Assembly: GCA_041495645.1 (NCBI GenBank) | Contig: JBGQCZ010000001.1 | Location: 1-32,296, forward strand | Reading direction: 5' to 3' | Source: Gemmataceae bacterium | GTDB lineage: Bacteria > Planctomycetota > Planctomycetia > Gemmatales > Gemmataceae | DNA: 32,296 bases | Part shown: positions 4,941 through 28,881 of the stretch, in pieces | Position numbering within the stretch: the stretch's first letter is position 1 | Layout: each line of letters opens with the position of its first letter | The notes under the pieces: model-generated | Seen by the model: the letters and a program-made list of their open reading frames with translations, nothing else | The model's database searches: none | What the model was told of the DNA's origin: nothing | Translations under genes and position numbers: made by a program

Positions 4941-5825
4941 TCAATCCACGATGCGGTTGCGGCCGGCGCGCTTGGCTTGATAGAGCTTTTCGTCCGCCCG
5001 GCGAACCATTTCCTTGGTGCTAAGGGATTCGTCGCCCGTGGTGCAACAAATGCCCATACTGACCGTTATGTGGAATTCCGACTCTTCGAATCGAAAGAGG
5101 CGTTGTTCGATGCTCGATCGAATGCGCTCGGCCACTTCGATCGACTGTTGTCGGTTCGTTTCGACCAACACCAACGCGAATTCCTCGCCGCCATACCGTG
5201 AAAACAGATCCTCGCGGCGCACAATCGCTTTCACGCAGGCAGCAAGCTCGCGCAAGGCGAAATCGCCGGCCAAATGGCCCAGTTGATCGTTGACGTTTTT
5301 GAACCAATCGATGTCGAACATGACCAGCGCCAAGGGGCGGGCGTGCCGGTTCGAACGGACCAATTCGCGGTCGAGAAACTCCAACATCGATCGTTGATTG
5401 TGAGTTTGAGTCAGCGCGTCGATGATGGTGAGACGGTAAATCTCTTCGTGGTACTCGGTTTCCACATTGCCGCCCACGAGGAAGCGATAGATGCAATTGC
5501 CCACGCGCACGTAGTCGCCGTCGTGAAGAGCGGCGTTTCCGCGGATCATGACGTCGTTCACGAACGTGCCGTTGGTGCTGCCCACGTCCGTCAGCATGAC
5601 TCCATCCGGGCTGGGATCGATGCGGGCGTGCTTGCGCGACACCGAATGATCCTGAATGCGAATCTCGCAATCCTCGCCGCGGCCGATCAACAGCGGTTTG
5701 TCCGAAAGCGGGTAGCGCGAACCCATGTTCGAACCGGTCGGGTAAATATGGATGAAGCACGCATTGCTATTGGACATGGGTCGGCGAAGTGGGGTGACCC
5801 AAGTTTCCGTTGTGGGCTTTTCCAT
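4941..5825 (-). CDS. FHA domain-containing diguanylate cyclase (FHA-GGDEF)
   Basis: FHA signature LLIGRGEDCEIRIQDHSVSRKHARI...STNGTFVN. GGDEF domain with active-site GGEEF and an upstream RRED (RxxD I-site) in VRREDLFSRYGGEEF. The start is uncertain: ATG at 5825 or ATG at 5777. The track's 5951 start looks like an over-extension. Confidence 0.8.
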   Translation of the reverse strand: MEKPTTETWVTPLRRPMSNSNACFIHIYPTGSNMGSRYPLSDKPLLIGRGEDCEIRIQDHSVSRKHARIDPSPDGVMLTDVGSTNGTFVNDVMIRGNAALHDGDYVRVGNCIYRFLVGGNVETEYHEEIYRLTIIDALTQTHNQRSMLEFLDRELVRSNRHARPLALVMFDIDWFKNVNDQLGHLAGDFALRELAACVKAIVRREDLFSRYGGEEFALVLVETNRQQSIEVAERIRSSIEQRLFRFEESEFHITVSMGICCTTGDESLSTKEMVRRADEKLYQAKRAGRNRIVD

Positions 5826-5976
5826 CCGAGAGACCCCGCGCGGCGAGAGCACGAAAACTGGGGATCCGCAAGCTCGATACCGTTTTCCTATTAACTGAGT
5901 GTAGTTTACGGGAATCCGCATCGCAAACAAATGCCAACGGCGGCCACGCATGGGCCGCCGTCAAATTCGCCGCAGT

Positions 5977-7506: not shown

Positions 7507-8163
7507 GCTTGATCTCCCCGTTTCACCGGACGAGCGCGTGCCTTCCCCCGAAAACACCGCCCGCGCGTGGCCGAACCTTCCGGTTGTATCGGCAATATCG
7601 ACCACGCCGGCCGAGAACTTCACAAAAACCCGAAGCGGCGGCGGAATCTCTAAAGCCTTGCTGTCCGCACCATCCCGAAGATCCAAAAAGCGTGCATTTG
7701 CGTGCATTTTCACATTCGGAGCCGAGCCACCAATCGTCCAGAACTCCTTATTCGACCAAGAATTGCGCCGCCCCCCCGATGCCTGCAAAAACTTTACGCG
7801 TTTGCACGCCCGCACGTACGCACTCGCGGTGGTGGTGCCGGCTGGCGCGAAGCTTTGCGTCATCTTTCCAAACATCGAACCGACGCGGAATGCCGCCCTG
7901 GAGCCCATCATGATCGATCCCTCCGCAGAGCGCGCACTATTGGGCGCTTAATTTCCCGACATATTATACACAAGTACACTTATTTGACTTTTTTGAGGCT
8001 TGCACAACAACCCCGTTTTGCGCAATAAGTCCGGGGCCTGCACAATAACTCGGTCGAACTGCGCGCGCCGATCCCCCACCAAATTGGCCAATTTCAGCTC
8101 AAGAAACCAAGCCCCGGAAGTCGTTATCTGCGCTACGGTTACAACAATGCGCAAAGAATTGGA

Positions 8164-8192
8164 TTGACATAAGTACATACCATCATTAGAAT
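8164..8192 (+). promoter_or_regulatory. Candidate sigma70-type promoter P1 (TTGACA-17 nt-TAGAAT)
   Basis: TTGACA at 8164-8169, a 17-nt spacer taagtacataccatcat, and TAGAAT at 8187-8192. It sits in the AT-rich gap upstream of the 8334 gene and points toward it. Confidence 0.4.
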
Positions 8193-8216
8193 TACGACGG
8201 CAGGAAAGAAAAGGTG

Positions 8217-8245
8217 TTGACCTGAACATTTAATGTACATACGAT
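8217..8245 (+). promoter_or_regulatory. Candidate sigma70-type promoter P2 (TTGACC-17 nt-TACGAT)
   Basis: TTGACC at 8217-8222, a 17-nt spacer, and TACGAT at 8240-8245. It shares a GTACATAC core with P1, inside the P1 spacer and running into the P2 -10 element. Confidence 0.3.
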
Positions 8246-8333
8246 AGGATATTTTTTTCCGAACTAAATAGTGGTTCGGGTGTCGAATATGCACCATGAG
8301 CAACAAGTCGAGATCGTTCGGGGCTGATAAGCG

Positions 8334-8792
8334 ATGAAGCCAGTTCTTCAGGCACTGGTGCTTGCCGAACATGTTTATACAGACGTGTCCGGAAAGAAGA
8401 TTATTGCGGGCACCTTCAACATCATCAACATTCGTCGCTTTAGTCCCGAGCAAGTAAAGGCGGGTCAGAATGTGCTTGCCCAACAGATGGGTTCGCCGTG
8501 GGCCTATTTGAGTCTGACCGATGTTGTTGACAAGACCAAAATCGCGTTGCAGTTTGTCAACGTATCAACGCATGCGGTGCTATTTCATACGGAGATTCAG
8601 ATTCTCAATCAGGATCGGCTTGCAACGGTTGAAATCGTCATGCCGCTGCCTCAATTGATGCTTTTTATGTCTGGGCCTGGAACGTATTCGCTCGACGCTC
8701 TTTGGGAGGGCGAACCCCTCGGGTCGCATCGGATTGACGCCAAAGATGTTCATAGCGACGAGAAACCGCCGTCAAACAATGGAACCAAATGA
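8334..8792 (+). CDS. Hypothetical 152-aa protein, first gene of an apparent three-gene operon with hicB-hicA
   Basis: ATG start in an ORF within the AT-richer islet. The stop at 8790-8792 is only 12 nt before the hicB ATG. The sequence looks beta-rich (MKPVLQALVLAEHVYTDVSGKKIIAGTFNI...). It vaguely recalls DUF6941-type proteins, but that is unverified. Confidence 0.65.
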   Translation: MKPVLQALVLAEHVYTDVSGKKIIAGTFNIINIRRFSPEQVKAGQNVLAQQMGSPWAYLSLTDVVDKTKIALQFVNVSTHAVLFHTEIQILNQDRLATVEIVMPLPQLMLFMSGPGTYSLDALWEGEPLGSHRIDAKDVHSDEKPPSNNGTK

Positions 8793-8804
8793 AGGGTATT
8801 TATC

Positions 8805-9173
8805 ATGCCAACAAAAACTTACGAAGCCGAAAACCCATCCAATCTTCGTCCTGAACCAGTGGAATATTGGATTGCCAAGCGCCGTCAGGAACGAGAGCCC
8901 GAGCCGGAACCAGAGCCGGAATCTAAGATAATCAAAGCATACAGCGTCGTGCTTTTCGTTTCAAAAGACGACAATGGTATTTGGTCCGCTGTTGCGCCGG
9001 GTCTGCCTGGAGCCGGAAGTTGCGGTGATACTGAGGCTCAGGCTATTGAGAACGCCAAAGAGGCAATTGCTGGCGTGCTTGAATGTTATGATTCCGACGC
9101 GGATATTCCGTGGAAAACCATTCCGGCATTGCCCAGCGACACGAAACAACTAAAGACTATCGTCCATGTCTAG
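8805..9173 (+). CDS. hicB: HicB-family antitoxin (UPF0150 fold) with an N-terminal about 45-aa extension containing an (EP)n tract
   Basis: Core YSVVLFVSKDDNGIWSAVAPGLPGAGSCGDTEAQAIENAKEAIAGVLE matches the HicB/UPF0150 pattern. It overlaps the downstream hicA by 8 nt. gaaggg lies 8 nt upstream of the ATG. No obvious C-terminal RHH/HTH domain. Confidence 0.75.
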   Translation: MPTKTYEAENPSNLRPEPVEYWIAKRRQEREPEPEPEPESKIIKAYSVVLFVSKDDNGIWSAVAPGLPGAGSCGDTEAQAIENAKEAIAGVLECYDSDADIPWKTIPALPSDTKQLKTIVHV

Positions 9174-9393
9174 AATTCCACGGATTTCGGAATCGGACGC
9201 ATTGCGCGCCTTTCAGCGCGCTGGTTTTTCTGTGGCCAGAATCAGAGGCGCTCACCACATAATGAAAAAAGAAGGGCACCGGGAAATACTCTCGGTTCCG
9301 GTGCATGCTGGCAAGACGATTGGCAAGGGGTTGCTTGGTGATCTTATCGATGCCGCAGGTTTGACCGTCGAACAATTCATAAAGCTTCTATAA
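9166..9393 (+). CDS. hicA: HicA-family mRNA interferase toxin
   Basis: MSRIPRISESDALRAFQRAGFSVARIRGAHHIMKKEG...VPVHAGKTIGKGLLGDLIDAAGLTVEQFIKLL matches the canonical HicA layout: (G)xHH, PVH, and a C-terminal LxxIxxxAGLxxEEF helix. Confidence 0.85.
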   Translation: MSRIPRISESDALRAFQRAGFSVARIRGAHHIMKKEGHREILSVPVHAGKTIGKGLLGDLIDAAGLTVEQFIKLL

Positions 9394-9437: not shown

Positions 9438-9617
9438 TCACTTTTTCCGGCCATCTCTAGCTCGGAGAGAGGCCCGCGTCATGGTGGCGCAACAGTCTTG
9501 AACTGGCGGAGGGTCCACCATCGAAATGTGTTCTCGTTCGCGCACCAGACGAGAGCCGAGAGTCTGCAGCGCTTTCACGACTCGTCGCTTCGGAGCGTCC
9601 TTCGGAAACTTGGCCAT
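9438..9617 (-). pseudogene. hicA: HicA-family toxin remnant (59-aa ORF, below the ORF-track cutoff), probably frameshifted or internally deleted
   Basis: My own translation of the minus strand gives MAKFPKDAPKRRVVKALQTLGSRLVREREHISMV, then non-HicA DPPPVQDCCATMTRASLRARDGRKK*. The ATG overlaps the hicB2 TGA by 1 nt (TGATG). The neighbouring frame reads DGGPSASSRLLRHHDAGLSPS*, resembling the missing HicA C-terminus. Confidence 0.55.
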
Positions 9618-9874
9618 CAGGTAACGACCTCGGCCTCCGCCACGAACGCCTCAATCACCGGCGATTCCACCTTCAACATCTTCCTGCCAAACGTCTGAAT
9701 GTGAAACCGGATGGCCGACTTCACGTCCGCCATCGCTGCCTCGTATGTGTCGCCTTCGCCCACGACCACGCCCTTCAACCCGAGCGGATAGGCGACATAG
9801 CCATCGCGGTGCTTTTCCACGATGATCTTGAATTGCTTCGCTGTCGCTCGACGCACGCCGTTCGATTTGCTCAT
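9617..9874 (-). CDS. hicB: HicB-family antitoxin (UPF0150), 85 aa
   Basis: FKIIVEKHRDGYVAYPLGLKGVVVGEGDTYEAAMADVKSAIRFHI is the HicB/UPF0150 pattern. ATG at 9874 with aagga 8 nt upstream. It is coupled to the downstream hicA-like ORF. Confidence 0.75.
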   Translation of the reverse strand: MSKSNGVRRATAKQFKIIVEKHRDGYVAYPLGLKGVVVGEGDTYEAAMADVKSAIRFHIQTFGRKMLKVESPVIEAFVAEAEVVT

Positions 9875-9904: not shown

Positions 9905-11317
9905 TCAACTCCACACATCCGACGTTGAATCGCCCATCGGAAAGCGCATCTCATGCGCTCGGGCCGGGCCGTCGGGTTCCTTGCCGAAGTCCACGAAGAA
10001 CTTTTCGTTGAGTTTCAGGCCGCCCTTCTCGGTGTCGCAATCGACTTGCAGCATAAGCGAGCCTTGCTTGGCGATGTTGGGATAGAACTGGTTATCCCAA
10101 CTGCTGAAGAGCGAATCGGTGACGTAGAGGCGTTTGCCGTCGAGGCTGAGTTGCAGCATTTGCGGGCCGCCGGTGGCTTGTTTGCCGTGAAGCTTCGGCG
10201 CTTTGCCGATCACACCGCCGACCCAAACCTGGCCCGCCAGCTTCGGCTTCGACGGATCGCTGATGTCGTATTGCCGCACGTCGCCGTGCAGCCAGTTCGA
10301 GAAATACAGCCAGCGATCGTCCAGCGACACGACCAGATCGCTAATCAGTCCCGGCACCGGGAAGTCCCAGCCCTTCTGTTCGACTCCCTCGACCTCGATC
10401 ACCTTCTCGGCCTTCCATTCGTCGCCGTCCTTGAAGTAATGCCACATCACGCTGGAAAGAGCCGCCCCGACAAAGCCGTGCGTGCTTTGCGGATTGTGAT
10501 GGAAGCGGACTTCGAGCGGGATCATGCCCTTCTCGCCCAGGTCGATGCTCTTGGCGATCTTGCGCTTGGTCCAATCCCAGAAATGCAGATGATGCCCGTA
10601 CTTGCCGGCCTTGACGTCATCGAGCTTGAAGCCGGGTCGCGTGGTGCTCGGGGCGGCCCACTCGCTGCTGACCATGACGTTGTGCCGGGGCTGATACCAA
10701 AAATCGTAGTTGTAGTTCATCCCTTGAGTGGTCGCTTCCCAGCGGCCGTCGATCTCGAACTTGTCATTAAGCAGCAAGAATCCGCCCGGCCCGTTGAGCT
10801 TGTCGTCGCCGAGCATCGAAATCATGATGCGTCCGTCGGACAGGCAATGAATGGTGTGCGGAGCGGTCAACTTCGTCTTGCGAACGATCTCATCCGGCTC
10901 GATGACCTTGTGCAGTTTGGGTTCGTTCGCCTTCTCCGTATCGACGATGTGAATGCGCCCGGAAACCAGACCCGGAATGATCAGGTAGCGCCGTTCGCGC
11001 TTGCCGTGACAACTCGCGCAGGCATTCCAGCCGAAGTGGTGCAATTCATCGCCGACGTTCGGCATCTTGAGCCGGTGAATCACTTGCGAATAAGTCTTCG
11101 AAGCGGGATCGAGATCGATGGTGGCGAGATAATCGGGCTTGTCCAAGCCCGTGCCGGCATAGACGCCAATGACATAGGCGAGCTTTTCCGGCGGCGACTT
11201 GCGGGCATCTTCCGGCGTGGCGAAGGTTCGTTCGGGCTCGGCGGCAGCGAGGCGGCCGGCGGCGCTCAACGCGAACGGAGTTACGGCGGCAGCGGCGAGA
11301 AAATCACGACGGTTCAT
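9905..11317 (-). CDS. Selenium-binding protein (SBP56) family / methanethiol oxidase-like, Tat-exported
   Basis: ATG at 11317 is preceded by ggagg with a 7-nt spacer. Twin-arginine signal MNRRDFLAAAAVTPFALSAAGRLAAA. SBP56 hallmarks PDYLATIDLDP, GDELHHFGWNACASCHG and HTIHC. The track's 549-aa version is an upstream over-extension. Confidence 0.85.
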   Translation of the reverse strand: MNRRDFLAAAAVTPFALSAAGRLAAAEPERTFATPEDARKSPPEKLAYVIGVYAGTGLDKPDYLATIDLDPASKTYSQVIHRLKMPNVGDELHHFGWNACASCHGKRERRYLIIPGLVSGRIHIVDTEKANEPKLHKVIEPDEIVRKTKLTAPHTIHCLSDGRIMISMLGDDKLNGPGGFLLLNDKFEIDGRWEATTQGMNYNYDFWYQPRHNVMVSSEWAAPSTTRPGFKLDDVKAGKYGHHLHFWDWTKRKIAKSIDLGEKGMIPLEVRFHHNPQSTHGFVGAALSSVMWHYFKDGDEWKAEKVIEVEGVEQKGWDFPVPGLISDLVVSLDDRWLYFSNWLHGDVRQYDISDPSKPKLAGQVWVGGVIGKAPKLHGKQATGGPQMLQLSLDGKRLYVTDSLFSSWDNQFYPNIAKQGSLMLQVDCDTEKGGLKLNEKFFVDFGKEPDGPARAHEMRFPMGDSTSDVWS

Positions 11318-11532
11318 GCGATGGCCTCCATGAGTCATGTTCCAGTAGAAGTGTCCCATTTTGGCCATCGGCCCGCGGGAATTCAAGACCCGGACGTTGC
11401 TCTGCCAACAGCCGCCGCACCGCCGCGATTCGTGAACTATGAATTCAATTGGTGAGCGCCACCGCTCCTCTCGGCCTCGCGAATCAGCCAGGCCTAATTC
11501 GTCGAACAAGGGCAGCCGTGCCAGGAAGTGAC

Positions 11533-12609
11533 ATGCAGCGCGAGTCAAAATCAATGAAGTTTCTGCTCGTGGCCCCCGCGGTGCTTGCGTTTTGCCTCGC
11601 GATGCAAGCTGCCGAACAAGGCCGCGGATTTCCCGGCTTGGGCTGCCGGTTCACGTTGCCGAACCAGGATTGGTTTTGGGTTGAACCGACTCAGCCTAAC
11701 GTATTATTCGCGGCGGCGACCAAGGATGGCCTTTCGTTGACAGCGATCTGCGATCGTCCCAAATATCGTTCGTCGGTGGATCAGATCGCAGCGAATGTAT
11801 TCGAAAGGGCGTTGAACCAATCATCGGGTGGACAGCTCACCAAGCGCGGCGGGATGTTCATTACCATTCAGGGCACTCCTTGTTACCAGTTCCACGGCGC
11901 CTACCCGGACGGCCGGACGACTGTCAGCCGGTTGATTCAGACGAACGACTTCACCTACCATCTGATGCTTGTTGGCAAGAACGGGCCAGTTGAACAACGG
12001 CCCGATTTTGAACAGATCATGTCGGGGTTCGCGTTCACGGTCCCGCCTCCAGTACCCGCCGAGCCAGCGAAGGGCAGCAACGCAGATTTGATCGTCATCA
12101 TTTTCGGAATTATCTGCTGCATTGTCGGGGCGACGCTGAGACATCTCTGGCGACAAAAGCCCAAAGCACGCTCGGCGCTCCGCGATGACTTTCGGCATGA
12201 TCGGCTTCCCGCTCCGCCGCAATTCACGGGGAGCAGTCGCGCGACAGCGGCTGCGCCGGCCGCATGGGACGCGCCGCAAAACAGTGCGATTGAATTGGAA
12301 AATGGCGGCTTGGCGGAATGCCGGCATTGCGGCTATCAGTCGGTGAGCGCCGAAGCGCGGCACTGTCCGAACTGCGGTAAAGCAGGTCCTCTGCCTGGGG
12401 TCATTTCGCGCTGGGCCGGTCGAGGCGCTATGGCGGGCATGCTCTTCGGCGGGATCGGGGGAGCCGTTTGGGGTTATTCGGTTTTGGCTGGCGGAGGCGT
12501 TTCGGGGTTCATTGCCGGTGGAGTGCTGGGTTTCATATTCGGGTTGCCGCTCGGGATGGGCGGCGGGCTAGTGGCGGGAATTGCGGCACGGGTCGCGGGG
12601 CATCGTTGA
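11533..12609 (+). CDS. Hypothetical membrane protein: signal peptide, about 150-aa extracytoplasmic domain, TM helix, Cys4 zinc ribbon and C-terminal glycine-zipper segment
   Basis: ATG at 11533 with aggaag upstream. Signal-like MKFLLVAPAVLAFCLAMQAAEQ. TM LIVIIFGIICCIVGATL. CRHCGYQSVSAEARHCPNCG. The tail GMLFGGIGGAVWGYSVLAGGGVSGFIAGGVLGFIFGLPLGMGGGLVAGIAA is a glycine zipper. Confidence 0.7.
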   Translation: MQRESKSMKFLLVAPAVLAFCLAMQAAEQGRGFPGLGCRFTLPNQDWFWVEPTQPNVLFAAATKDGLSLTAICDRPKYRSSVDQIAANVFERALNQSSGGQLTKRGGMFITIQGTPCYQFHGAYPDGRTTVSRLIQTNDFTYHLMLVGKNGPVEQRPDFEQIMSGFAFTVPPPVPAEPAKGSNADLIVIIFGIICCIVGATLRHLWRQKPKARSALRDDFRHDRLPAPPQFTGSSRATAAAPAAWDAPQNSAIELENGGLAECRHCGYQSVSAEARHCPNCGKAGPLPGVISRWAGRGAMAGMLFGGIGGAVWGYSVLAGGGVSGFIAGGVLGFIFGLPLGMGGGLVAGIAARVAGHR

Positions 12610-12627
12610 TCGAGGAGGGCGGGCGGG

Positions 12628-13587
12628 ATGTTTTTCATTTGGGGTGCGTACAACTCGGATAAGCAGCGGGGCGTCGTTGGCGACAAGTGCCCAAACTGCG
12701 GCCGGTTGACCGTTCTGCGCATTACGCAGCACTATCGCACGCAGCACGTATATTTCATTCCCTTGGGTTCGGGCGCGTTGACGGCGACCGTGCGGACCTG
12801 TGGCAATTGCGGCGCGGCAACGACTTGTTCGATGAGCGCCTATCCGCGGCTGCTTCCGGAGAAAGAAACAAGTTCGTGGCCCATCGATGAGATCGTGCGG
12901 CAGAGCAACCCCCGGCTGGCGGAGGCAATGGCTTTTCGGGCACAACTGGAACAGGATGTGCTCGATGCGGATCGCCGGTCGTTCGGACGCCTCGATCCCC
13001 GCGTCAAGCTCGCCTTTGCCAAGATCGCCGAGTTGGATTGCTCCGAGCCGCAAGTGATCGAATTGCAAACGCGGCTGGCTCAATGGGAACAACTTGACCA
13101 AGAACCTCGCGCTTGGCTGCTGCGTCGCATCGATGAATTGCTCGACCGCGTCGATCGGCGTCGGTCCGCCGATTTGTTCGTCCGCCTGATCGCCCAGCGA
13201 TTCAGGCCCGAGATGGATGGCTTCCTCAAATTCGCTACGTTCGTCGCCGTATTCGCGGTGGGAATTACTGTGACGATTGTGACCGTTCGCGACCTGAATC
13301 TGGGCTTGGCCGTCGGGTTAGTAATGGCGCTCGTCGCCGCAATCGCCTCTGCCATGTTCGTCCACCGCCAACTTCAGCGCTGGGCTCACAAACGCTTCTT
13401 TCGCAAAGTGCTCTTGCGCGAGGCGGGCGACCGGAACGTCGCGGTCGATGACGTCATGGCGACCATGGATCAGGTGAACGTCTTGGACGAAAGCACGGAC
13501 GCCCAAATACGCGGAATGGCCCAGGCCGCACCATTGCTGGCTGAGGTGCTTGCTGAGAGAAGCGATCTCGTGTCCTTGACGGCTTAG
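12628..13587 (+). CDS. Hypothetical protein: N-terminal zinc-ribbon (MFFIWG...CPNCG...YFIP...CGNCG), helical middle region and two C-terminal TM helices; paralogue of the next gene
   Basis: ATG lies 18 nt after the previous stop, with gaggag upstream. Cys4 pattern. TM candidates FLKFATFVAVFAVGITVTIVTV and LGLAVGLVMALVAAIASAMFV. It aligns by eye along its full length with 13598..14605. Confidence 0.7.
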   Translation: MFFIWGAYNSDKQRGVVGDKCPNCGRLTVLRITQHYRTQHVYFIPLGSGALTATVRTCGNCGAATTCSMSAYPRLLPEKETSSWPIDEIVRQSNPRLAEAMAFRAQLEQDVLDADRRSFGRLDPRVKLAFAKIAELDCSEPQVIELQTRLAQWEQLDQEPRAWLLRRIDELLDRVDRRRSADLFVRLIAQRFRPEMDGFLKFATFVAVFAVGITVTIVTVRDLNLGLAVGLVMALVAAIASAMFVHRQLQRWAHKRFFRKVLLREAGDRNVAVDDVMATMDQVNVLDESTDAQIRGMAQAAPLLAEVLAERSDLVSLTA

Positions 13588-13597
13588 GAGCCTTGGC

Positions 13598-14605
13598 ATG
13601 TTCGTCATTGCAGGTGAGTATAACCTGGACAAGAAGCTGGGGATGGTGGCCGATCGGTGCACGATCTGCGGCAGTGTTACCTTGCTGAGTGCCACGAAAC
13701 TCGCGCGCATGGATCATGCGTACTTCATTCCGGTTAGTTCCCGCAAGCAACTTGGCACGGTGCTGGTATGCAGCGAATGCAAGGGCAAGTCCGTGTGCAG
13801 TCCGCAGTCATTCGCGTGCTTTCTTCCAGAGAAAGAGGCACGGTCGCTATCGTTGAACGAGGTCCTGTTGCGGACAAACCCTCGCCTGGCTGAATCGATG
13901 AACCACCGGGCGCGGCTTGAGCGGGAGTCCCTCGGTGCGCCGGAAGTCGCGCGGAAGGATGGTATCAACCCGCGCGTTGAGTTGGCTTTCTTGAAGATCT
14001 CGTGCCTGAGCGGCAATGACAAGCGAATCGTCGAATTGCAGGCCAAGCTGGCCCAATGGGGCGCTCTCGATTCGGCGACCCAATCTCGAATCCTGTCGGA
14101 CGTGGACACGCTTGCCGGCGAATACGAGCGGCGCGAAGCAAGCGAACACTTCTTGAATTTCGTCGCTCAGCGATTCAAGCCCGAAATCAGCGGATTGCCC
14201 AAGCTGATGTCGTTTGTGCTCCCGCTTATCCCGGGCATTGCCTTCACCATGATCTTCCTAAACGGCAACGAAACGAGAATGGCCACTGGCCTCGCACTTT
14301 CGTTCGTCCCGGCGCTTGCAGTCGGCTTACTGGCCAATTGGTATTTTCTCCGGCAAATGCACAAGCAGTTCTTTCGTTCGGTATTTCTGCCCGAGGCCGA
14401 TGAGCGGGGCCTTCGGATGGCTCCCGTCATTGAACTGCTAGGCACCGTCGACACCGACGATTTGCGGATTGACGAGCGTCATCGTGGCATGGCCCGAGCG
14501 ATTCCACTATTGAAACAAGTCCTCGCCGAACAAAATCGATACGTGGAGATGACAAACGAACTGCATGATTCGAAGCCGGAACAAATCGATGCACTGCACC
14601 AGTGA
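13598..14605 (+). CDS. Hypothetical protein, tandem paralogue of 12628..13587 (zinc ribbon plus helical region plus 2 TM)
   Basis: ATG lies 10 nt after the previous stop, and the aggag RBS overlaps that stop (taggag). MFVIAGEYN...CTICG...YFIPV...CSECKG. Blocks shared with the paralogue: LPEKE, NPRLAE.M..RA.LE, VELQ..LAQW..LD, AQRF.PE, PLL..VLAE. Confidence 0.7.
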   Translation: MFVIAGEYNLDKKLGMVADRCTICGSVTLLSATKLARMDHAYFIPVSSRKQLGTVLVCSECKGKSVCSPQSFACFLPEKEARSLSLNEVLLRTNPRLAESMNHRARLERESLGAPEVARKDGINPRVELAFLKISCLSGNDKRIVELQAKLAQWGALDSATQSRILSDVDTLAGEYERREASEHFLNFVAQRFKPEISGLPKLMSFVLPLIPGIAFTMIFLNGNETRMATGLALSFVPALAVGLLANWYFLRQMHKQFFRSVFLPEADERGLRMAPVIELLGTVDTDDLRIDERHRGMARAIPLLKQVLAEQNRYVEMTNELHDSKPEQIDALHQ

Positions 14606-14661: not shown

Positions 14662-16035
14662 TTACGCCGTTGCCGGCCCCAGCAGATGGCGGCGGAGCCA
14701 GACGCCGAGCGCGTCCATTTTCTCGCCGCGGCGGCCGAGCCGTTCACGATGTTGCAGAAAATGCTCCAGCAACATGAGCCGGCGCTGGGCGCGAAGCAGT
14801 TTCATCCGCGCATTGTAGACCAGCTTCATTTCGGGGCGATGCCAATCGACGCGGCCCTGCGCGTCGCGTTTGAGTTGCACGCTCAGGATCAGTCCCGAGC
14901 GGCAATGCATCGTGTACATCGCCGTCACGAAGTTGCCAAGCGAATAGACGATCAGCGCTTTTCGAGGGATGCCCGTGTCGTCGCGCAGAATGCAGCCGGT
15001 TCGTTCCGCAAGCGCCGGCAAGTCGAGGCCCTGTTCGCGCATACGGGTTTCGTAACCGTTGACAAAACAGACCTCCAACGGCTGCACGACGTGCGGATGC
15101 GTGCCTATGATCATGTCCGCACCCAAGCGGACGATCTCGCGGCCCACCTGCATCAGATCGGGCGTGGGGTAAAACTCAAATTCGTGTCCCCAGTGCAACG
15201 ACACGATGCGAAAATCGACGCTGGCCGCGGCCATGTCGGTCAGCACCTCGCGCACCCGGCCCAAATCAACGGGATGCCGAACTGTTGGCACGATGCCGGG
15301 GATGGTTTCGATTTGAAACGACGTGTGATTGAGCAAGTCCGGAGCGTTGAGTCCCCAACAAGCGGCATAGAAACCGATGCGCAGGCCGGCGGATTCGATC
15401 AGCGTCCACGGCCGCTCGCCGGGCACGCGCGCTCCCGAGTGGGCGATGCTCTGTTGATCGAGGAATTCGAGCGTGTCGGCGAGCCCGTCGTCGCCTTTGT
15501 CCAAGCAATGGTTATTAGCCGTGGCCAACGCGGAAAACGTGTTGCTCCCGTTCGGCCGGGCGAACGACGTGATCAGCGACGGTTTCGAGTTGTAATGGAC
15601 GGTGTCCGGCAAGACCCGGTAAACATAGCGGCGCGCGGAGATCGGCGTTTCCAGGTTACCCACCACGATATCGTGCCCGTTGAGATGAGCGAGCACCTCG
15701 GGAGTCAGAAACTCATCCCAACTATCGCGCAGCCACATGACATCGCCGACGGCGGCCAGGCGAACGCCGGCCTCGGGCTGTTCGCTCAGCCAGCGAACGA
15801 GCCGGCGCTGCTCGTCGAAGTAACGAATCTCCTCGGGGCATGCCGACCAATGCCCGCGGCGGTATTTGCGCAGGTAGGCGCGGCCGGTCTTGATCGCCTC
15901 GCGCAGCGGCTGGCCTTCGGCACGGGCACTCGCATACCACGGCCGGTCGGTTTCTTCGGAAAACTTGTAAGGAAAATGGTCGCGCTCGGTGGGCATTGGC
16001 GGGACTCCGTGATCGATCCCGAACCAGTCAGACAT
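14662..16035 (-). CDS. CapA/PGA_cap-family metallophosphoesterase (poly-gamma-glutamate capsule synthesis protein-like)
   Basis: ATG start. Motifs AVGDVMW, VVGNLETPIS, LATANNHCLDKGDDGLADTLEFL, SLHWGHEF and IGTHPHVVQP are typical of the CapA family. Confidence 0.8.
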   Translation of the reverse strand: MSDWFGIDHGVPPMPTERDHFPYKFSEETDRPWYASARAEGQPLREAIKTGRAYLRKYRRGHWSACPEEIRYFDEQRRLVRWLSEQPEAGVRLAAVGDVMWLRDSWDEFLTPEVLAHLNGHDIVVGNLETPISARRYVYRVLPDTVHYNSKPSLITSFARPNGSNTFSALATANNHCLDKGDDGLADTLEFLDQQSIAHSGARVPGERPWTLIESAGLRIGFYAACWGLNAPDLLNHTSFQIETIPGIVPTVRHPVDLGRVREVLTDMAAASVDFRIVSLHWGHEFEFYPTPDLMQVGREIVRLGADMIIGTHPHVVQPLEVCFVNGYETRMREQGLDLPALAERTGCILRDDTGIPRKALIVYSLGNFVTAMYTMHCRSGLILSVQLKRDAQGRVDWHRPEMKLVYNARMKLLRAQRRLMLLEHFLQHRERLGRRGEKMDALGVWLRRHLLGPATA

Positions 16036-16230
16036 GCATTTCTTACGCCGGCAACCTCTCTTTTTTTACGTGAATTCTGCAAGTCCTGTTGGGTGGGTCG
16101 AGACCGGGCTCGGCGGCCAGCTCGGGTTTCTTCATGCGTGCTTTGTCGCGTTTGAAGCGGACTGTAGGGCGGGTCGAGTCTTCGAGGCCCGCCGTTGCGG
16201 TCGGCGTGCCTCGAAGACTGGGTTCAAACG

Positions 16231-17595
16231 TCACAGGCAACGGAGGAAAGCCACCAGGTCCTTCTTCTCCGCTTCGGTCAGCTTCAGTTCCAGAACGAGA
16301 TTGAAGAATTCGACCGTGTCTTCCAGGGTCAGCAACCGGTCGTCGTGCAGATAGGGCGGCGAGTCCTTGATGCCTCGCAGCGGGAAGGTCTTGATCGGTC
16401 CGTCGGCGCTCGCCTTGCGGCCGTTGATCATGACTTCCTTGAAGAATCGTTCGACCTTCAGGTTATGCATCAGGTTGTCGGTGTAGTACGGCGGCGTGTG
16501 GCAGGTCGCGCACTGGGCCTTGCCGAAGAACAGTTCCTGGCCGCGAAGTTCGCTCTCGGTGGCTTTGGCTGGACTCAGCTTGCCAAAGATATTGAGCTTG
16601 GGAGCGGGCGGGAAATCGAGGATGTTCTCGACTTCGGCCATGAAATGCACCTGGCTGCCGCGTTCGAGAATGTTCACGCCTTTCTTCGTGGCCTGAACCG
16701 GATCGCCGTCGAAATAGGCGGCGCGTTGCTCGAACTCGGTGAAATCCTCGGCGCTCTTCATGGCCCGCTGCGAACCGAACAAGCGCTGGATGTTGAGACC
16801 GCGCAGCGACGGTGTATCGATGCGGTGGCGATGCTCGTTCGGTCGAATATCACCGACGGTGTGAGTGGCGGCGGTCGTATGGCCGTTGGCGTGGCAGTCG
16901 AAGCAAGCCACGCCCTGATGGGCCTTCAACGCGCGGCGGTCATCGGTGGCATTGAACTGCGCTTGGGCGAACGGCGTCACCAGCAGTCGCAAGCCTTCGA
17001 GTTGCTTCGGATTCACGATGTCTTTGAACAAGTCGTTGAAATTAGCCAAAGTCACCAACTTGCCTTTGGACACATCGCCGAGATCGGGGCGCGTCGTGAG
17101 ATAAATGGGCGCAGGGAATTCGGGCAGGAAATGGTCCGGCAGATCGAAGTCGAGATCGAAGCGCGTCAGGTCGCGCTCGGTCTGTTTCTTGGTTTCTTCG
17201 ATAAGGAACTTGGGGAAGATCATGCCGCCAGCTTCGTGATGCGGATGCGGCAGCGGGTAAAAACCAGCCGGCCAGGCGTTCCTTTCCTTGATCTCCTCGG
17301 GCATCATGGCCGCGAGTTTCTCCCACGTCATGCCCTCGGAAAGTTTGGCCCGCACACCGGCCTGAACGGCCTTGCCGCGCGCCATCGTGACGCCGTAGGC
17401 CGCGCGGTTGGCCAAGTCATATCGCTCGGCGAGCAGCTTTTGCTGGCGTTCGGCGAATGCCGGTTTCTCTTTTTCCAAACGGCTGACGAGCGTCGGGAAA
17501 TCTTCGTCGGCGGCAAATACGGTGAAGGCCCCGCAGACAATCAGAGCGCCGGCAGCCAGAGCCGGAATTCTCGCAATAGTGCGATTCGCATTCAT
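16231..17595 (-). CDS. Di-haem cytochrome c peroxidase / MauG-family protein, secreted
   Basis: ATG at 17595 with ggaga 6 nt upstream. Signal-like MNANRTIARIPALAAGALIVCGAFTVFA. Two CxxCH haem motifs (CFDCH, CATCH) with CCP/MauG-like spacing. Confidence 0.8.
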   Translation of the reverse strand: MNANRTIARIPALAAGALIVCGAFTVFAADEDFPTLVSRLEKEKPAFAERQQKLLAERYDLANRAAYGVTMARGKAVQAGVRAKLSEGMTWEKLAAMMPEEIKERNAWPAGFYPLPHPHHEAGGMIFPKFLIEETKKQTERDLTRFDLDFDLPDHFLPEFPAPIYLTTRPDLGDVSKGKLVTLANFNDLFKDIVNPKQLEGLRLLVTPFAQAQFNATDDRRALKAHQGVACFDCHANGHTTAATHTVGDIRPNEHRHRIDTPSLRGLNIQRLFGSQRAMKSAEDFTEFEQRAAYFDGDPVQATKKGVNILERGSQVHFMAEVENILDFPPAPKLNIFGKLSPAKATESELRGQELFFGKAQCATCHTPPYYTDNLMHNLKVERFFKEVMINGRKASADGPIKTFPLRGIKDSPPYLHDDRLLTLEDTVEFFNLVLELKLTEAEKKDLVAFLRCL

Positions 17596-17682
17596 GGTTG
17601 TTCTCCAAAGGTAGGCAAATCCACTTTTTCATGCTTATTGCCGTTGAGCCGATCGCCAACCTGCGAAATGTCGCCGAGCCGG

Positions 17683-18270
17683 CTAAGCCCCGCGCGCCCG
17701 CAACCCGGCCCAGACGACATCCACCATTTTCTTGAGATCGCGTTCGCGCGATAACGAGGCGCCGTGTGCCAAAACATTGCCGAGCGCCCAGTCGTGCGCG
17801 AGGCTCGCGAGGAGCTTGGCGGCAAGGGCTGCAGACGGCATGACAATCAACCGCCGACGCTTGAGTGACGCGAGCCGCTCCGCCAGACCAGCCTGAAGTG
17901 TCGCCGGTCCGCGCGGCTGCATGCGCGCGAGCGCGTGCGGGTCGAACGACGGATGCGTCATCACGCGCACCGCCAGCGGAATGATCTCGGCATAATACTT
18001 TCCGAGCCGAACGACAACCGCGCGCAAATAGGCGAGCGCATCGTCGGGCGGGTCCTTGGGTCCAAGCAATTGTTCGATGTCCGGTCCAGTGGCATGCATG
18101 GCGGCAAAGAACAAATGGTCTTTGCTGCCGAAGCGCTGATAGAGGATGGCTTCGGAGATACCGGCGGCCTCGGCGATCTCGCGCGTGGTTGCGGTATGTC
18201 CGTGGGCGCGAAAGATATCGCGCGCGACAACAAGCACGTCCTCATCCGAAATCGTCTTATGACGCCCCAT
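17683..18270 (-). CDS. TetR/AcrR-family transcriptional regulator
   Basis: ATG at 18270 (MGRHKTISDEDVLVVARDIFRAHGHTATTREIAEAAGISEAILYQRFGSKDHLF gives the TetR HTH). The track's longer 252-aa version reads through the upstream tandem repeat (RFRGRRPRLQQG twice) and is rejected. Confidence 0.85.
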   Translation of the reverse strand: MGRHKTISDEDVLVVARDIFRAHGHTATTREIAEAAGISEAILYQRFGSKDHLFFAAMHATGPDIEQLLGPKDPPDDALAYLRAVVVRLGKYYAEIIPLAVRVMTHPSFDPHALARMQPRGPATLQAGLAERLASLKRRRLIVMPSAALAAKLLASLAHDWALGNVLAHGASLSRERDLKKMVDVVWAGLRARGA

Positions 18271-26610: not shown

Positions 26611-26634
26611 ATCCGTGGTATTCAATCCGTGGGT
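26611..26634 (+). repeat. Third, unpaired copy of the 24-nt arm atccgtggtattcaatccgtgggt
   Basis: Identical to 26525-26548. The similarity extends upstream (a[at]tgcatt[tg]c) and downstream (ttt). It lies about 100 nt before exbB. Confidence 0.8.
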
Positions 26635-26737
26635 TTTAACCGAACGACAAAGTGCTTTTTTCGTTGCCCCGACCAGTCAAAATGACGATATTGACCTGAA
26701 TGACCCAAAATTCCCAACCCGATCGAGATCCACGCCG

Positions 26738-27490
26738 ATGAAAAATGCATTGTTGGACTTTATCGAGAACGAATGGTACTTCTTTTTTCCGCTCCTGATG
26801 ATGTCCATGACGGCCATGGCCCTGGTCTTTTGGCGCTTGCTGCTGAACATGGGCGCCAAGACCAACATGGGTTCGTTTTTGCCGGTTTTTCAGGCCGTGC
26901 TGCAGAAGGAAGGAATCGAAGGAGCACGAAAATTCTGCACGCTCCAAAGCGGTTTGATCCCACGCAAACTGCTTGTCGCCGGCCTGGACAACGCCAAGCA
27001 GGGCGCCTCGGCCATGCGCCGCGCCATGGCCAACGTCATCGAGCTGGAAATCCTCCCGGAGTTGAATTTCCTCCTGGCCCCAATGTTGGCCATCGCCAAG
27101 GTCGCCACGATGGTCGGCCTGCTGCTGACGGTTATTTCCATGATCGAGACGTTTAGCGCGATCGGTGAAGCGGTCAAACAAGGCGATCAGGGCGGCGCCG
27201 GCAAACAATCTGGTAAGATTGGTTTAGCGTTGTTCGCGACGGCGATGGGGCTCATCACCGCTATTCCCTTGGTGTTCACGCACGTGCTGATGAAAGCGAA
27301 TATTCACAAGTTCGAACTGAAGATGAAGAGTTCCGGTCAGAAGCTCATCACGCTGGTGCAGAACGCGAAGGACAACCCCGTCCCGCCACAGCCCGCCGGA
27401 GGCGGACCGGCAGGCGGCCAAGGTCCCGGAGGCGCTGGCGCAAAACCCGGTACCGCGCCGGTATCGCCCGTTACGGCACGTAGAGGTTGA
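26738..27490 (+). CDS. exbB: MotA/TolQ/ExbB-family proton-channel protein
   Basis: ATG at 26738. Three TM segments with the family pattern LAIAKVATMVGLLLTVISMIETF...GKIGLALFATAMGLITAIPLVFTHVLM. Gly/Pro-rich C-terminal tail. Confidence 0.8.
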   Translation: MKNALLDFIENEWYFFFPLLMMSMTAMALVFWRLLLNMGAKTNMGSFLPVFQAVLQKEGIEGARKFCTLQSGLIPRKLLVAGLDNAKQGASAMRRAMANVIELEILPELNFLLAPMLAIAKVATMVGLLLTVISMIETFSAIGEAVKQGDQGGAGKQSGKIGLALFATAMGLITAIPLVFTHVLMKANIHKFELKMKSSGQKLITLVQNAKDNPVPPQPAGGGPAGGQGPGGAGAKPGTAPVSPVTARRG

Positions 27491-27497
27491 TCCCCGC

Positions 27498-27558
27498 GAA
27501 CGGAATAAATTCCGTTCTACCTTGGATGGCGAAAAGTAGAACGAAATTCATTCCGTTC
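27498..27558. repeat. Pair of 20-bp palindromes GAACGGAAT-NN-ATTCCGTTC in the exbB-exbD spacer
   Basis: gaacggaataaattccgttc (27498-27517) and gaacgaaattcattccgttc (27539-27558), centres 41 bp apart. The flanking tac/gta extends the outer inverted symmetry. Confidence 0.75.
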
Positions 27559-27568
27559 GGAGCACAGC

Positions 27569-28279
27569 ATGTCTTCACCCAAGAAATTCTTCTTCGATGT
27601 ATGGCTGTCGCAAGGGAAGACGGTCTATAAGGACGTGCCCTACGAAGTAGTCACCGACTGGCTTCAGCAGGGCCGCTTACTGGGCGACGACCGCATTCGC
27701 CCCGCCGGAACCGAGGAATGGTTCCCGATCGCCGGGGTGCCGACGTTCGCGGGTTACATCCCGAAGAACGACCCGTTGCGCACCGATGAGAGGGCCGAAG
27801 CGCTGGAACCCGTGGAGACGGGCTGGGGCAAGAAAGAGGAAGAGGAAGAAGCCGATCCGGACATGATTCCGCTGATCGACGTCAGCCTCGTGCTGCTGAT
27901 CTTCTTCATGATCACGTCTACAGTAGCGGCTGTCACATCGATCATCTCGGTGCCCGAAGTCAAGCACGCGGAGCCGACCGTTAACGTCAACATGATCTGG
28001 ATCGGCATCAAGTACTACAGCGAGACGCAGCCCGCCGACTACACCGTCCGCCTCGACGGCGACAAGGACAAGAAGATCTTCAAGGACGGCCTGAACAAAG
28101 AACAAGTCATTCAGATGGTGAATGAGATTCTCGAAAGACAGACCGTGCCCGAAGTGCGTATCGCGGCGCACCGGCTCGTGAGTTATGATCTCCTGAAGGA
28201 CTTGCATTTGGAGCTCGAAGCCCACAAGGCCAATAGCAAGATCATCAAGATTCACGTCGAGGTGGGGGAGAAAAAATGA
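27569..28279 (+). CDS. exbD: ExbD/TolR-family protein with N-terminal GYF_2 (DUF4339)-like domain
   Basis: ggag lies 7 nt upstream of the ATG. N-terminus FFFDVWLSQGKTVYKDVPYEVVTDWLQQGRLLGDDRIRPAGTEEWFPI is GYF_2-like. ExbD TM with the conserved Asp: MIPLIDVSLVLLIFFMIT. Confidence 0.75.
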   Translation: MSSPKKFFFDVWLSQGKTVYKDVPYEVVTDWLQQGRLLGDDRIRPAGTEEWFPIAGVPTFAGYIPKNDPLRTDERAEALEPVETGWGKKEEEEEADPDMIPLIDVSLVLLIFFMITSTVAAVTSIISVPEVKHAEPTVNVNMIWIGIKYYSETQPADYTVRLDGDKDKKIFKDGLNKEQVIQMVNEILERQTVPEVRIAAHRLVSYDLLKDLHLELEAHKANSKIIKIHVEVGEKK

Positions 28280-28881
28280 GTTGGCAAATGCGGCACGAAG
28301 GTTCGCCCCACGCCACGTCCGGCCTCACGCCCAACCAGGTCTTGGAAGGGGTCCGCGACGGAATTTGGGGAATCACCGACGAGGTGCGCGGGCCGAAAGA
28401 CGTGAAATGGATCCCGCTCGAATCGCATCCGTTCTTCGAGGATGCGTTGGCCGAACTCGAGGAGCCGGCGCGCCACTCGGATATCGAGGAACACCTCGAC
28501 ATGAACCCGCTCATCGACGTGGCCTTGGTGTTGCTGATTTTCTTTATTCTGACGACGTCATACGAAGCCCTGCGAAAAGTGATTGAGATGCCGACAGCGT
28601 CCAAAAAGTCACCGCGATTCATTTCGAGAGTCGATGCGGAATCCAGGTACGTGATGGTCAAAGCTACCACGGTCGAAGGTGGGAAAGTGCTTTTCAAAGT
28701 GGACGGACAAGAGGTAGAGGAGCGATTCTTGGAAGATGCGTTCCGCCGTGCAGTTGCGCAGGGAAGAAAAGAAATGATTATCGATGCAGAGAATGTTACA
28801 TGGGGCACGGTGACCACGATCATGGATACCGGCCAAAGCGCTGAGATTCGGAGCTTCAAAATGAAAGTGAACAGAAACTAG
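28276..28881 (+). CDS. exbD: Second ExbD/TolR-family protein with N-terminal GYF_2-like domain
   Basis: ATGA overlap with the previous gene, gggggag upstream. GLTPNQVLEGVRDGIWGITDEVRGPKDVKWIPLESHPFF is GYF_2-like. MNPLIDVALVLLIFFILTTS is the ExbD TM. Confidence 0.75.
   Translation: MSWQMRHEGSPHATSGLTPNQVLEGVRDGIWGITDEVRGPKDVKWIPLESHPFFEDALAELEEPARHSDIEEHLDMNPLIDVALVLLIFFILTTSYEALRKVIEMPTASKKSPRFISRVDAESRYVMVKATTVEGGKVLFKVDGQEVEERFLEDAFRRAVAQGRKEMIIDAENVTWGTVTTIMDTGQSAEIRSFKMKVNRN

Follow-up and report, generated by a model that had tools for sequence, protein, structure and literature searches.

Two undescribed families of zinc-ribbon membrane proteins encoded by three adjacent genes of a planctomycete-like bacterium

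The DNA analysed here is a stretch of 32,296 nucleotides (nt), called the window below, from contig JBGQCZ010000001.1 of a Gemmataceae bacterium (assembly GCA_041495645.1). At positions 11533 to 14605 it holds three plus-strand genes (g1, g2, and g3), whose products are non-enzymatic inner-membrane proteins belonging to two undescribed families, one represented by g1 and the other by the paralogs g2 and g3. Across lineages, the conserved unit is a pair made of one g1-family gene and one g2/g3-family gene, and not the triad seen in this organism, which combines g1 with two old partner paralogs. The three genes and their parts, with residues given in amino acids (aa), are the following:

11369-11532: intergenic stretch between the divergent genes SBP56 and g1, where the operon promoter presumably lies
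11533-12609, plus strand: g1, open reading frame (ORF) for a 358-aa membrane protein
11554-11613, plus strand: g1 signal-peptide-like hydrophobic segment, aa 8-27 (hydropathy; start position kept in homologs; putative cleavage)
11620-12042, plus strand: g1 periplasmic domain, about aa 30-170, with a PsbP/Mog1/DcrB-like fold (AlphaFold2 and Foldseek)
12082-12144, plus strand: g1 transmembrane (TM) helix, about aa 184-204 (hydropathy maximum 2.6), followed by a basic stretch and then DDF
12310-12384, plus strand: g1 short cytoplasmic C4 zinc ribbon (C263, C266, C278, C281)
12412-12606, plus strand: g1 glycine-zipper tail with a basic end, whose two Gly-rich helices would form a TM hairpin
12628-13587, plus strand: g2, ORF for a 319-aa member of the zinc-ribbon/TM-hairpin family
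12628-12825, plus strand: g2 zinc ribbon, aa 1-66 (C21, C24, C58, C61)
13222-13368, plus strand: g2 TM hairpin, aa 199-247 (hydropathy; AlphaFold2)
13598-14605, plus strand: g3, ORF for a 335-aa paralog of g2
13598-13795, plus strand: g3 zinc ribbon, aa 1-66 (CxxC at aa 21 and 58; alignment)
14195-14350, plus strand: g3 TM hairpin, aa 200-251 (hydropathy; alignment with g2)

The junctions between the genes, read directly from the sequence, are very short. The g1 stop (TGA, 12607-12609) is separated by 18 nt from the g2 ATG at 12628, which has a Shine-Dalgarno-like GAGGAGG 9 nt to its 5' side, and the g2 stop (TAG, 13585-13587) by 10 nt from the g3 ATG at 13598, where an AGGAG 7 nt upstream of the ATG overlaps the g2 stop. 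An AGGAAG lies 4 nt 5' of the g1 ATG at 11533; since the homologs of g1 align from its M8, the ATG at 11554 may be the true start. Both flanking genes are on the minus strand, the SBP56 gene running from 9905 to about 11317 or 11368 and the PGA_cap gene occupying 14662-16035. An earlier annotation made from the letters alone (the sequence-only reading) had described this arrangement, together with the CxxC...CxxC ribbons and membrane segments of all three proteins and the Gly-rich tail of g1, and it proved accurate on each of these points. The spacing of 10-18 nt argues for co-expression, and no convincing terminator was found between g1, g2, and g3, the 8 hairpins flagged within the operon being weak, with 3-4 GC pairs, and not clearly more numerous than in shuffled sequence (4.4 +/- 1.9). 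No sigma-70-like consensus was found in 11369-11532, the region that presumably acts as promoter. g1, g2, and g3 are real genes and not chance ORFs, homologs at 32-49% identity being present in independent metagenomes, and by their arrangement they appear to make up a single operon, located on a planctomycete-like chromosome. A mobile-element origin of the module was considered and dropped, as neither tRNA genes nor noteworthy flanking repeats turned up in searches around it, and its GC content (0.59-0.62) is the same as that of the rest of the window; a plasmid blastn search with the module gave no match. A 21-nt inverted repeat (90% complementary, arms at 11284-11304 and 14717-14737) does bracket the module, and we judge it a product of chance in GC-rich coding DNA because its arms fall within the coding sequences of the two flanking genes, where they encode unrelated peptides (DFLAAAA in SBP56 and GRRGEKM in PGA_cap).

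The g1 family is small. The relatives found are P0005 (32% identity), a 354-aa protein at locus L007 (34-35%), and a 378-aa protein at locus L012 (43%), and a metagenome scan with a g1 profile returned only an already known contig. All share one layout, namely a signal-like segment, an ectodomain, a TM helix, the DDF motif, a low-complexity linker, a ribbon of the form C-x2-C-x(10-11)-C-x2-C, a PxP, and a Gly-rich tail with a basic end. The DDF motif is invariant in 4/4 homologs, as are all four ribbon cysteines (CxxC at aa 263 and 278 in a sequence scan of g1), and the linker between TM helix and ribbon is disordered. A cytoplasmic location of the C-terminal side fits the positive residues after the TM helix. 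In Pfam the ribbon gives sub-threshold matches to Zn_ribbon_3 and DZR. The tail, comprising the last 65 aa, is 34% Gly with 11 overlapping GxxxG motifs, and its Gly positions are kept in the 4 homologs, although none of the glycine-zipper Pfam families (Gly-zipper_Omp/YMGG/OmpA, Rick_17kDa_Anti) matches g1 at E<=1. It shares with glycine-zipper proteins (Gly-zipper_Omp/YMGG, the Rick_17kDa_Anti 2TM type, GlsB/YeaQ/YmgE) the two Gly-rich hydrophobic helices with repeated GxxxG, but in g1 this segment is a C-terminal tail placed behind a cytoplasmic zinc ribbon, and the resemblance is one of composition.

The ectodomain is the part of g1 for which a fold can be proposed. Its AlphaFold2 model (10-residue block means of the predicted local distance difference test, pLDDT, between 42 and 83, mostly >60, with a weak stretch at aa 76-100) has as its best PDB match in Foldseek the cyanobacterial PsbP structure 2xb3 (E 2.8e-7, TMt 0.67), and all 34 PDB matches at E<=1e-3 belong to the PsbP/Mog1 superfamily, among them Mog1, DcrB, EagT6/SciW, LpqN, Apa, and MTC28. 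This is a binding fold and not a catalytic one, so the exposed domain described as sensor-like in the sequence-only reading is at least of a binding type. The model superposes on PsbP, Mog1, DcrB, DUF1795 (Eag), and LpqN proteins and, like DcrB, LpqN, and PsbP, the domain is extracytoplasmic. However, the likeness holds at the level of the fold only, as no Pfam model of this clan (PsbP, DcrB/DUF1795, Lpp-LpqN, Mog1) is listed for g1 at E<=1, and a PDB sequence-profile search with the g1 profile gave nothing significant and nothing in the ectodomain region. A further difference is that in g1 a TM helix tethers the domain to a zinc ribbon in the cytoplasm and to a glycine-zipper tail, an architecture found only in the small g1 family. 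The invariant ectodomain motifs are CRxT, WxW, KRGG, CYQFxG, DG..T..R, YHL, and PxFE..GF. Immediately upstream of the g1-like gene in L012 (2324-4924) lies a gene for an 866-aa multi-domain membrane protein in which the same PsbP-like domain (KRGG...C.Q...TTVSR...PDFE.IMSGF) comes after a large helical region in the periplasm and before several TM helices, so that the g1 ectodomain family also has other architectures.

The second family is much larger. g2 and g3 are 39% identical over their full length (E 3e-79); the closest relative of g3 is P0014 (49%), encoded directly downstream of the g1-like gene in L012, and in a neighbour-joining tree g3 groups with P0014 while g2 falls elsewhere. On these comparisons the two are old paralogs and not recent duplicates. 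A word-indexed search gave few relatives, and an exhaustive profile search of 1.84 billion representatives gave 860 at E<=1e-3 (339 at E<=1e-10 and 61 at E<=1e-30), each standing for one 50%-identity cluster. The matches are mostly 310-330 aa long and extend from end to end. In an alignment of 51 members, G15, C21, C24, C58, and C61 are invariant (51/51) and G6, V17, H40, T93, N94, L150, and W153 are at least 90% conserved; the conserved places are the zinc ribbon, a T-N-P helix cap, an L..W..L motif, a basic juxtamembrane helix (RRxFR), and the C-terminal helices. Little is conserved in the TM helices, and no polar residue in them is kept.

The AlphaFold2 model of g2, obtained with 10 input sequences (pLDDT 85.1, predicted TM-score 0.67), consists of a beta zinc ribbon (5-66), helices (78-189), a TM hairpin (199-220 and 227-268), and C-terminal helices (273-318). 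Its strands (5-20, 27-41, 50-58, and 64-66) put the CxxC knuckles at beta-hairpin turns, and the N-terminus of g2 and g3 is accordingly modelled as a four-Cys ribbon with two CxxC knuckles, predicted to bind zinc. The aligned stretch over the hairpin turn (g2 aa 218-229) has 4-19 residues across the family, mostly 8-12, and the mean net charge after the second TM helix is +4.3; because of this short turn and positive charge, both termini can be placed in the cytoplasm. Past the hairpin there is a conserved cytoplasmic helical domain of about 70 aa, which was absent from the sequence-only reading. The g2/g3 proteins are hence almost wholly cytoplasmic and anchored by a TM hairpin, and no enzyme or transporter signature was found in them, their conservation lying in the cytoplasmic parts.

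None of the known families accounts for these proteins. For g1, g2, and g3 no model of Pfam, NCBIfam, PADLOC, or PHROGs scored above threshold, and PDB sequence-profile searches with the g2/g3 profiles gave nothing significant, so that the absence of an assignable function or enzymatic family, as first annotated, stands. Foldseek found no analog of the g2 model in the PDB, where the best E was 0.13 and TM-scores were <=0.21, and none in BFVD, where the best E was 0.099. The proposed kinship of the g2/g3 N-termini with Zn_ribbon_15 (PF17032) stands as a resemblance but not as a membership, with 18.8 bits for g2 and 14.9 for g3 against a gathering threshold of 28.9. Both share with that profile a hydrophobic beta-strand start, the first CxxC, H-x-Y-F-I-P, and the second CxxC, and both knuckles align to profile positions 2-47 in g2, g3, and 13 of the 51 relatives (these 13 at E<0.01, best E 1.3e-4), always below threshold; even the best short relative, P0080 (96 aa), reaches only 27.5 bits. 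The ribbon of g2 and g3 differs in heading a protein of about 320 aa whose helical domain, TM hairpin, and C-terminal domain lie outside the span of PF17032, and Zn_ribbon_15 is itself an uncharacterised family. Searching the 51 relatives against Pfam and NCBIfam, we saw Bestrophin-like (PF14023) in 1 member (E 3.8e-5) and SCO2097_fam in 1 (6.2e-5); these and an EccD match among the relatives were set aside as single-member noise.

As to distribution, a search of viral contigs gave no hit, and in the GTDB species genomes a first scan gave nothing and the final scan only two remote relatives (L009 and L010). The source names of the relatives are all 'hypothetical protein', except for one JGI label that is likely spurious, and those with a named source are Planctomycetota, one (P0020) from a Gemmataceae genome and a remote one from a Phycisphaeraceae metagenome-assembled genome. 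Searches of the literature on Zn_ribbon_15/PF17032, on zinc ribbons with glycine zippers, and on Planctomycetes zinc ribbons turned up nothing that describes either family.

We inspected the gene neighbourhoods of about 12 loci. In L001 a g1-like gene is followed after 32 nt by a family member truncated by the contig end, in L007 the g1-like gene lies 11 nt upstream of the family member, and in L012/L013 it lies 76 nt upstream of P0014. On the P0009 contig (373-aa gene, 44-nt gap, upstream genes as in L001) and the P0011 contig (359-aa gene, 23-nt gap), the upstream gene is g1-like by size and position only. Besides this organism, the pair is therefore seen in five lineages, two of them known only by size, and each of the g1-family genes found (4 sequenced, 2 inferred) has a g2/g3-family member directly downstream of it on its own strand. 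The surroundings differ from locus to locus, with SBP56 and PGA_cap here, WD40, CxxCxxCC, and epimerase genes at another, and rpsO with a likely pnp at a third; other neighbours include resistance-nodulation-division (RND) efflux genes, and most are housekeeping. Adjacency kept across such changing contexts argues that g1 and the g2/g3 family are functionally linked. The unit suggested by the sequence-only reading thus holds for g1 with one partner and fails as a set of three genes, the full triad occurring only here and on identical copies of this organism's locus in three other datasets.

The architectures of the relatives also bear on how these proteins may work. In P0013, P0015, P0016, and P0027 a single zinc ribbon is followed, within one chain, by two tandem copies of the unit made up of helical region, TM hairpin, and C-terminal domain, an internal duplication confirmed by blastp in P0013, P0015, and P0016. 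The gene for P0013 stands alone on a scaffold of 237 kb (L014) and is apparently monocistronic. In P0023, P0029, and P0069 a third TM helix and a periplasmic domain are added; these were tried as Rosetta-stone fusions and rejected as such, their periplasmic domains being without sequence similarity to the g1 ectodomain, and they support a need for periplasmic exposure and not homology to g1. The N-terminal ribbon is joined to other TM and periplasmic bodies in P0120 and P0141, to a PD40 propeller in L009, and to an FHA domain in P0157. Because their fusion partners are repeatedly periplasm-exposed or signalling domains, the first 100 residues can be regarded as an autonomous cytoplasmic head module.

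The reading we favour, with a probability of roughly 0.4, is that these proteins form an inner-membrane hetero-oligomer in which a periplasmic binding domain is coupled to cytoplasmic zinc-ribbon scaffolds, serving in envelope sensing or scaffolding. g2 and g3 would pair through their TM-hairpin modules, a pairing proposed mainly because some relatives hold two such modules in one chain, and would associate in the membrane with g1 via its TM and glycine-zipper helices and possibly via zinc-ribbon contacts. Binding of a periplasmic protein or lipid by g1 would then be relayed to the cytoplasmic zinc-ribbon scaffold, and the complex would be neither a toxin nor a defence effector. The ribbon-module fusions to extra TM and periplasmic domains (P0023, P0029, P0069, P0120, and P0141), to the PD40 propeller (L009), and to the FHA domain (P0157) support the need for a periplasmic partner. 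Several observations weigh against this interpretation. The family does not need g1, as at least five members lack it (L002, L003, L008, the P0010 contig, L010, and L014/L015). The g1 family amounts to 4 sequences in hand plus 2 instances inferred from gene size, and the full g1 model has a mean pLDDT of 48.7, poor outside the ectodomain and not confident in the tail. In addition, 'sensing or scaffolding' is a class of function and not a mechanism, since it names no output domain, regulator, or ligand.

The same members without g1, together with a triad unique to one organism, also speak for there being no joint function at all, with g1 and the g2/g3 family independent neighbours and g2 and g3 redundant paralogs. 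We regard this as unlikely, because the six g1-family genes, at 32-43% protein identity, all lie directly upstream of a family member in differing neighbourhoods, and the 10-18 nt spacing in this organism argues for co-expression. Considerably less probable is the anti-phage or abortive-infection module that had been suggested for this locus, with g1 as surface sensor and the glycine zipper or the TM hairpins as membrane-disrupting effectors. Two-TM and glycine-zipper segments are indeed common effector types, paralog content differs among lineages, and toxin-antitoxin genes occur near three loci (HicAB at 8805-9393 here, PIN upstream of P0010, and DUF2283 next to P0011); yet such modules are frequent in genomes of this kind, so their proximity carries little weight. 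Against defence, PADLOC-DB 2.0 gave nothing for g2 and g3 and a single chance-level DruE match for the g1 ribbon (E 0.0067, 11 bits), PHROGs gave nothing for g2 and g3 at E<=0.1 and zinc-ribbon noise only for g1, and no occurrence was seen on the viral contigs or plasmids searched. The neighbours at the roughly 12 loci are mostly housekeeping genes (likely rpsO-pnp, SBP56, epimerase, RND efflux), with no defence island seen there, the GC of the module equals that of the surrounding DNA, and what is conserved in g2 and g3 are the cytoplasmic helical domains and not the TM helices. The glycine-zipper tail is conserved, but nothing shows a pore or toxin role for it and, apart from the three toxin-antitoxin neighbours, no defence or mobile setting emerged at the loci inspected. 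Neither a defence nor a stress role thus finds support.

Two further explanations start from the general layout of the proteins. In an ion-conducting or stator-like complex, g2/g3 would be the TM-hairpin subunit (cf. ExbB, MotA, GldL, CorA) and g1 the periplasm-reaching partner, or its tail a small channel. The build is analogous to that of ExbB/ExbD, MotA/MotB, and GldL/GldM (a TM hairpin with cytoplasmic helices and a partner with a periplasmic domain), some channels contain glycine zippers, and there are weak Foldseek matches to ExbB, TolQ, MotA, PomA, and CorA, weak sequence matches to PorL/GldL, and the one Bestrophin-like member. However, the likeness is of layout only and none of these matches is significant (Foldseek E >=0.13, TM-score <=0.21; PorL in the PDB profile search, E 5.8), the topology of g1 is opposite to that of ExbD, MotB, and GldM, and the TM helices of g1, g2, and g3 contain no conserved polar or acidic residues, which together make this explanation quite improbable. 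Membership in the 5:2 stators was specifically rejected, with no MotA_ExbB or GldL Pfam match, Foldseek E >=0.97 at TM-score <=0.21, and no conserved acidic residue in the g1 TM helix, and so was a channel of the CorA or bestrophin type, given a CorA Foldseek E of 1.8, no GMN motif, a Bestrophin-like match in 1/51 members, and poorly conserved TM helices. Alternatively, the zinc-ribbon heads might hold a cytoplasmic regulator that is freed when the periplasmic domain is triggered, as in anti-sigma signalling. The fused relatives P0023, P0120, P0141, and L009 do mirror the layout of zinc-binding anti-sigma factors (ZAS), a cytoplasmic zinc module joined through the membrane to a periplasmic domain, P0157 has the FHA fusion, and Planctomycetes encode many extracytoplasmic function sigma factors. 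Still, we find this improbable, as no sigma or regulator gene adjoins any locus (the window has no sigma gene, and the only one seen lies some 9.5 kb away from P0009), neither an HxxxCxxC ZAS motif nor a zf-HC2 match in Pfam was found, and the zinc domain is a beta-ribbon in the AlphaFold2 model and not the helical domain of these factors; as a ZAS anti-sigma factor the module was rejected on the same grounds. Overall, none of the comparisons places g1, g2, or g3 in a characterised system.

Going further than the envelope-sensing or scaffolding complex that we favour, one could see in the pair an unrecognised, Planctomycetota-centred device in which a dimerising new cytoplasmic fold and a PsbP-fold periplasmic receptor relay envelope information, the zinc-ribbon module being a new and widely shuffled signalling head (FHA, PD40, and other periplasmic fusions). 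We consider this extended proposal possible but doubtful.

Outside the module the window consists of ordinary chromosomal sequence, with genes for an aminotransferase, an S41 peptidase, an alcohol dehydrogenase, an FHA-GGDEF protein, HicAB, a TetR regulator, an acyl-CoA synthetase, a short-chain dehydrogenase, EF-G, and ExbB/ExbD. The features nearest to the module on its upstream side are the following:

8334-8792: DUF6941 protein, in a low-GC segment
8805-9173 and 9166-9393: HicB-HicA toxin-antitoxin pair, overlapping
9905-11368, minus strand: SBP56 homolog (selenium-binding protein / methanethiol-oxidase family; E 2e-206)

The SBP56 homolog has a twin-arginine-like N-terminus (MNRRDFLAAAAV). 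Its mechanical ORF runs to 11554 and would overlap the start of g1; gene calls on identical contigs start it at the equivalent of 11368 or 11317. The segment 8001-9874 is low in GC (0.487 at 8001-9000 vs. about 0.59 elsewhere) and, lying some 2 kb away from the module, may represent a small mobile insertion. It also contains two small minus-strand ORFs (9438-9617 and 9617-9874) that look by eye like a second HicA/HicB-type pair, with no Pfam match. On the other side of the module, 16231-17595 (minus strand) encodes a 454-aa protein with a signal peptide and two CxxCH haem-binding motifs (CFDCH and CATCH), which resembles a di-haem cytochrome c peroxidase or MauG-type protein and has no Pfam match at E<=1e-3. 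The ExbB (MotA_ExbB) gene and two following ExbD genes at 26615-28881 (plus strand) form a TonB-type energising cluster unrelated to g1-g3, and the FHA-GGDEF diguanylate cyclase at 4941-5951 (minus strand) is worth mentioning only because the distant g2/g3 relative P0157 combines the zinc-ribbon head with FHA. Three long plus-strand ORFs (9953-11455, 14686-16155, and 16195-17754; 489-519 aa) run antisense to the SBP56, PGA_cap, and cytochrome genes and are the usual stop-poor frames of high-GC DNA, not genes.

The newness of these proteins lies in the fact that nothing described matches them, a status shared by many conserved hypothetical families, and their value is that of a well-delimited experimental target. 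If the pairing reflects a real complex, it would add a new bacterial inner-membrane protein family of 860 clusters with a confidently predicted fold that has no solved analog, and the PsbP/Mog1 fold would be put to a new use, that of a periplasmic module tethered to the membrane and connected with zinc ribbons in the cytoplasm. The biology of the planctomycete envelope is poorly understood, and conserved membrane complexes typical of the lineage are candidates for its unusual features.

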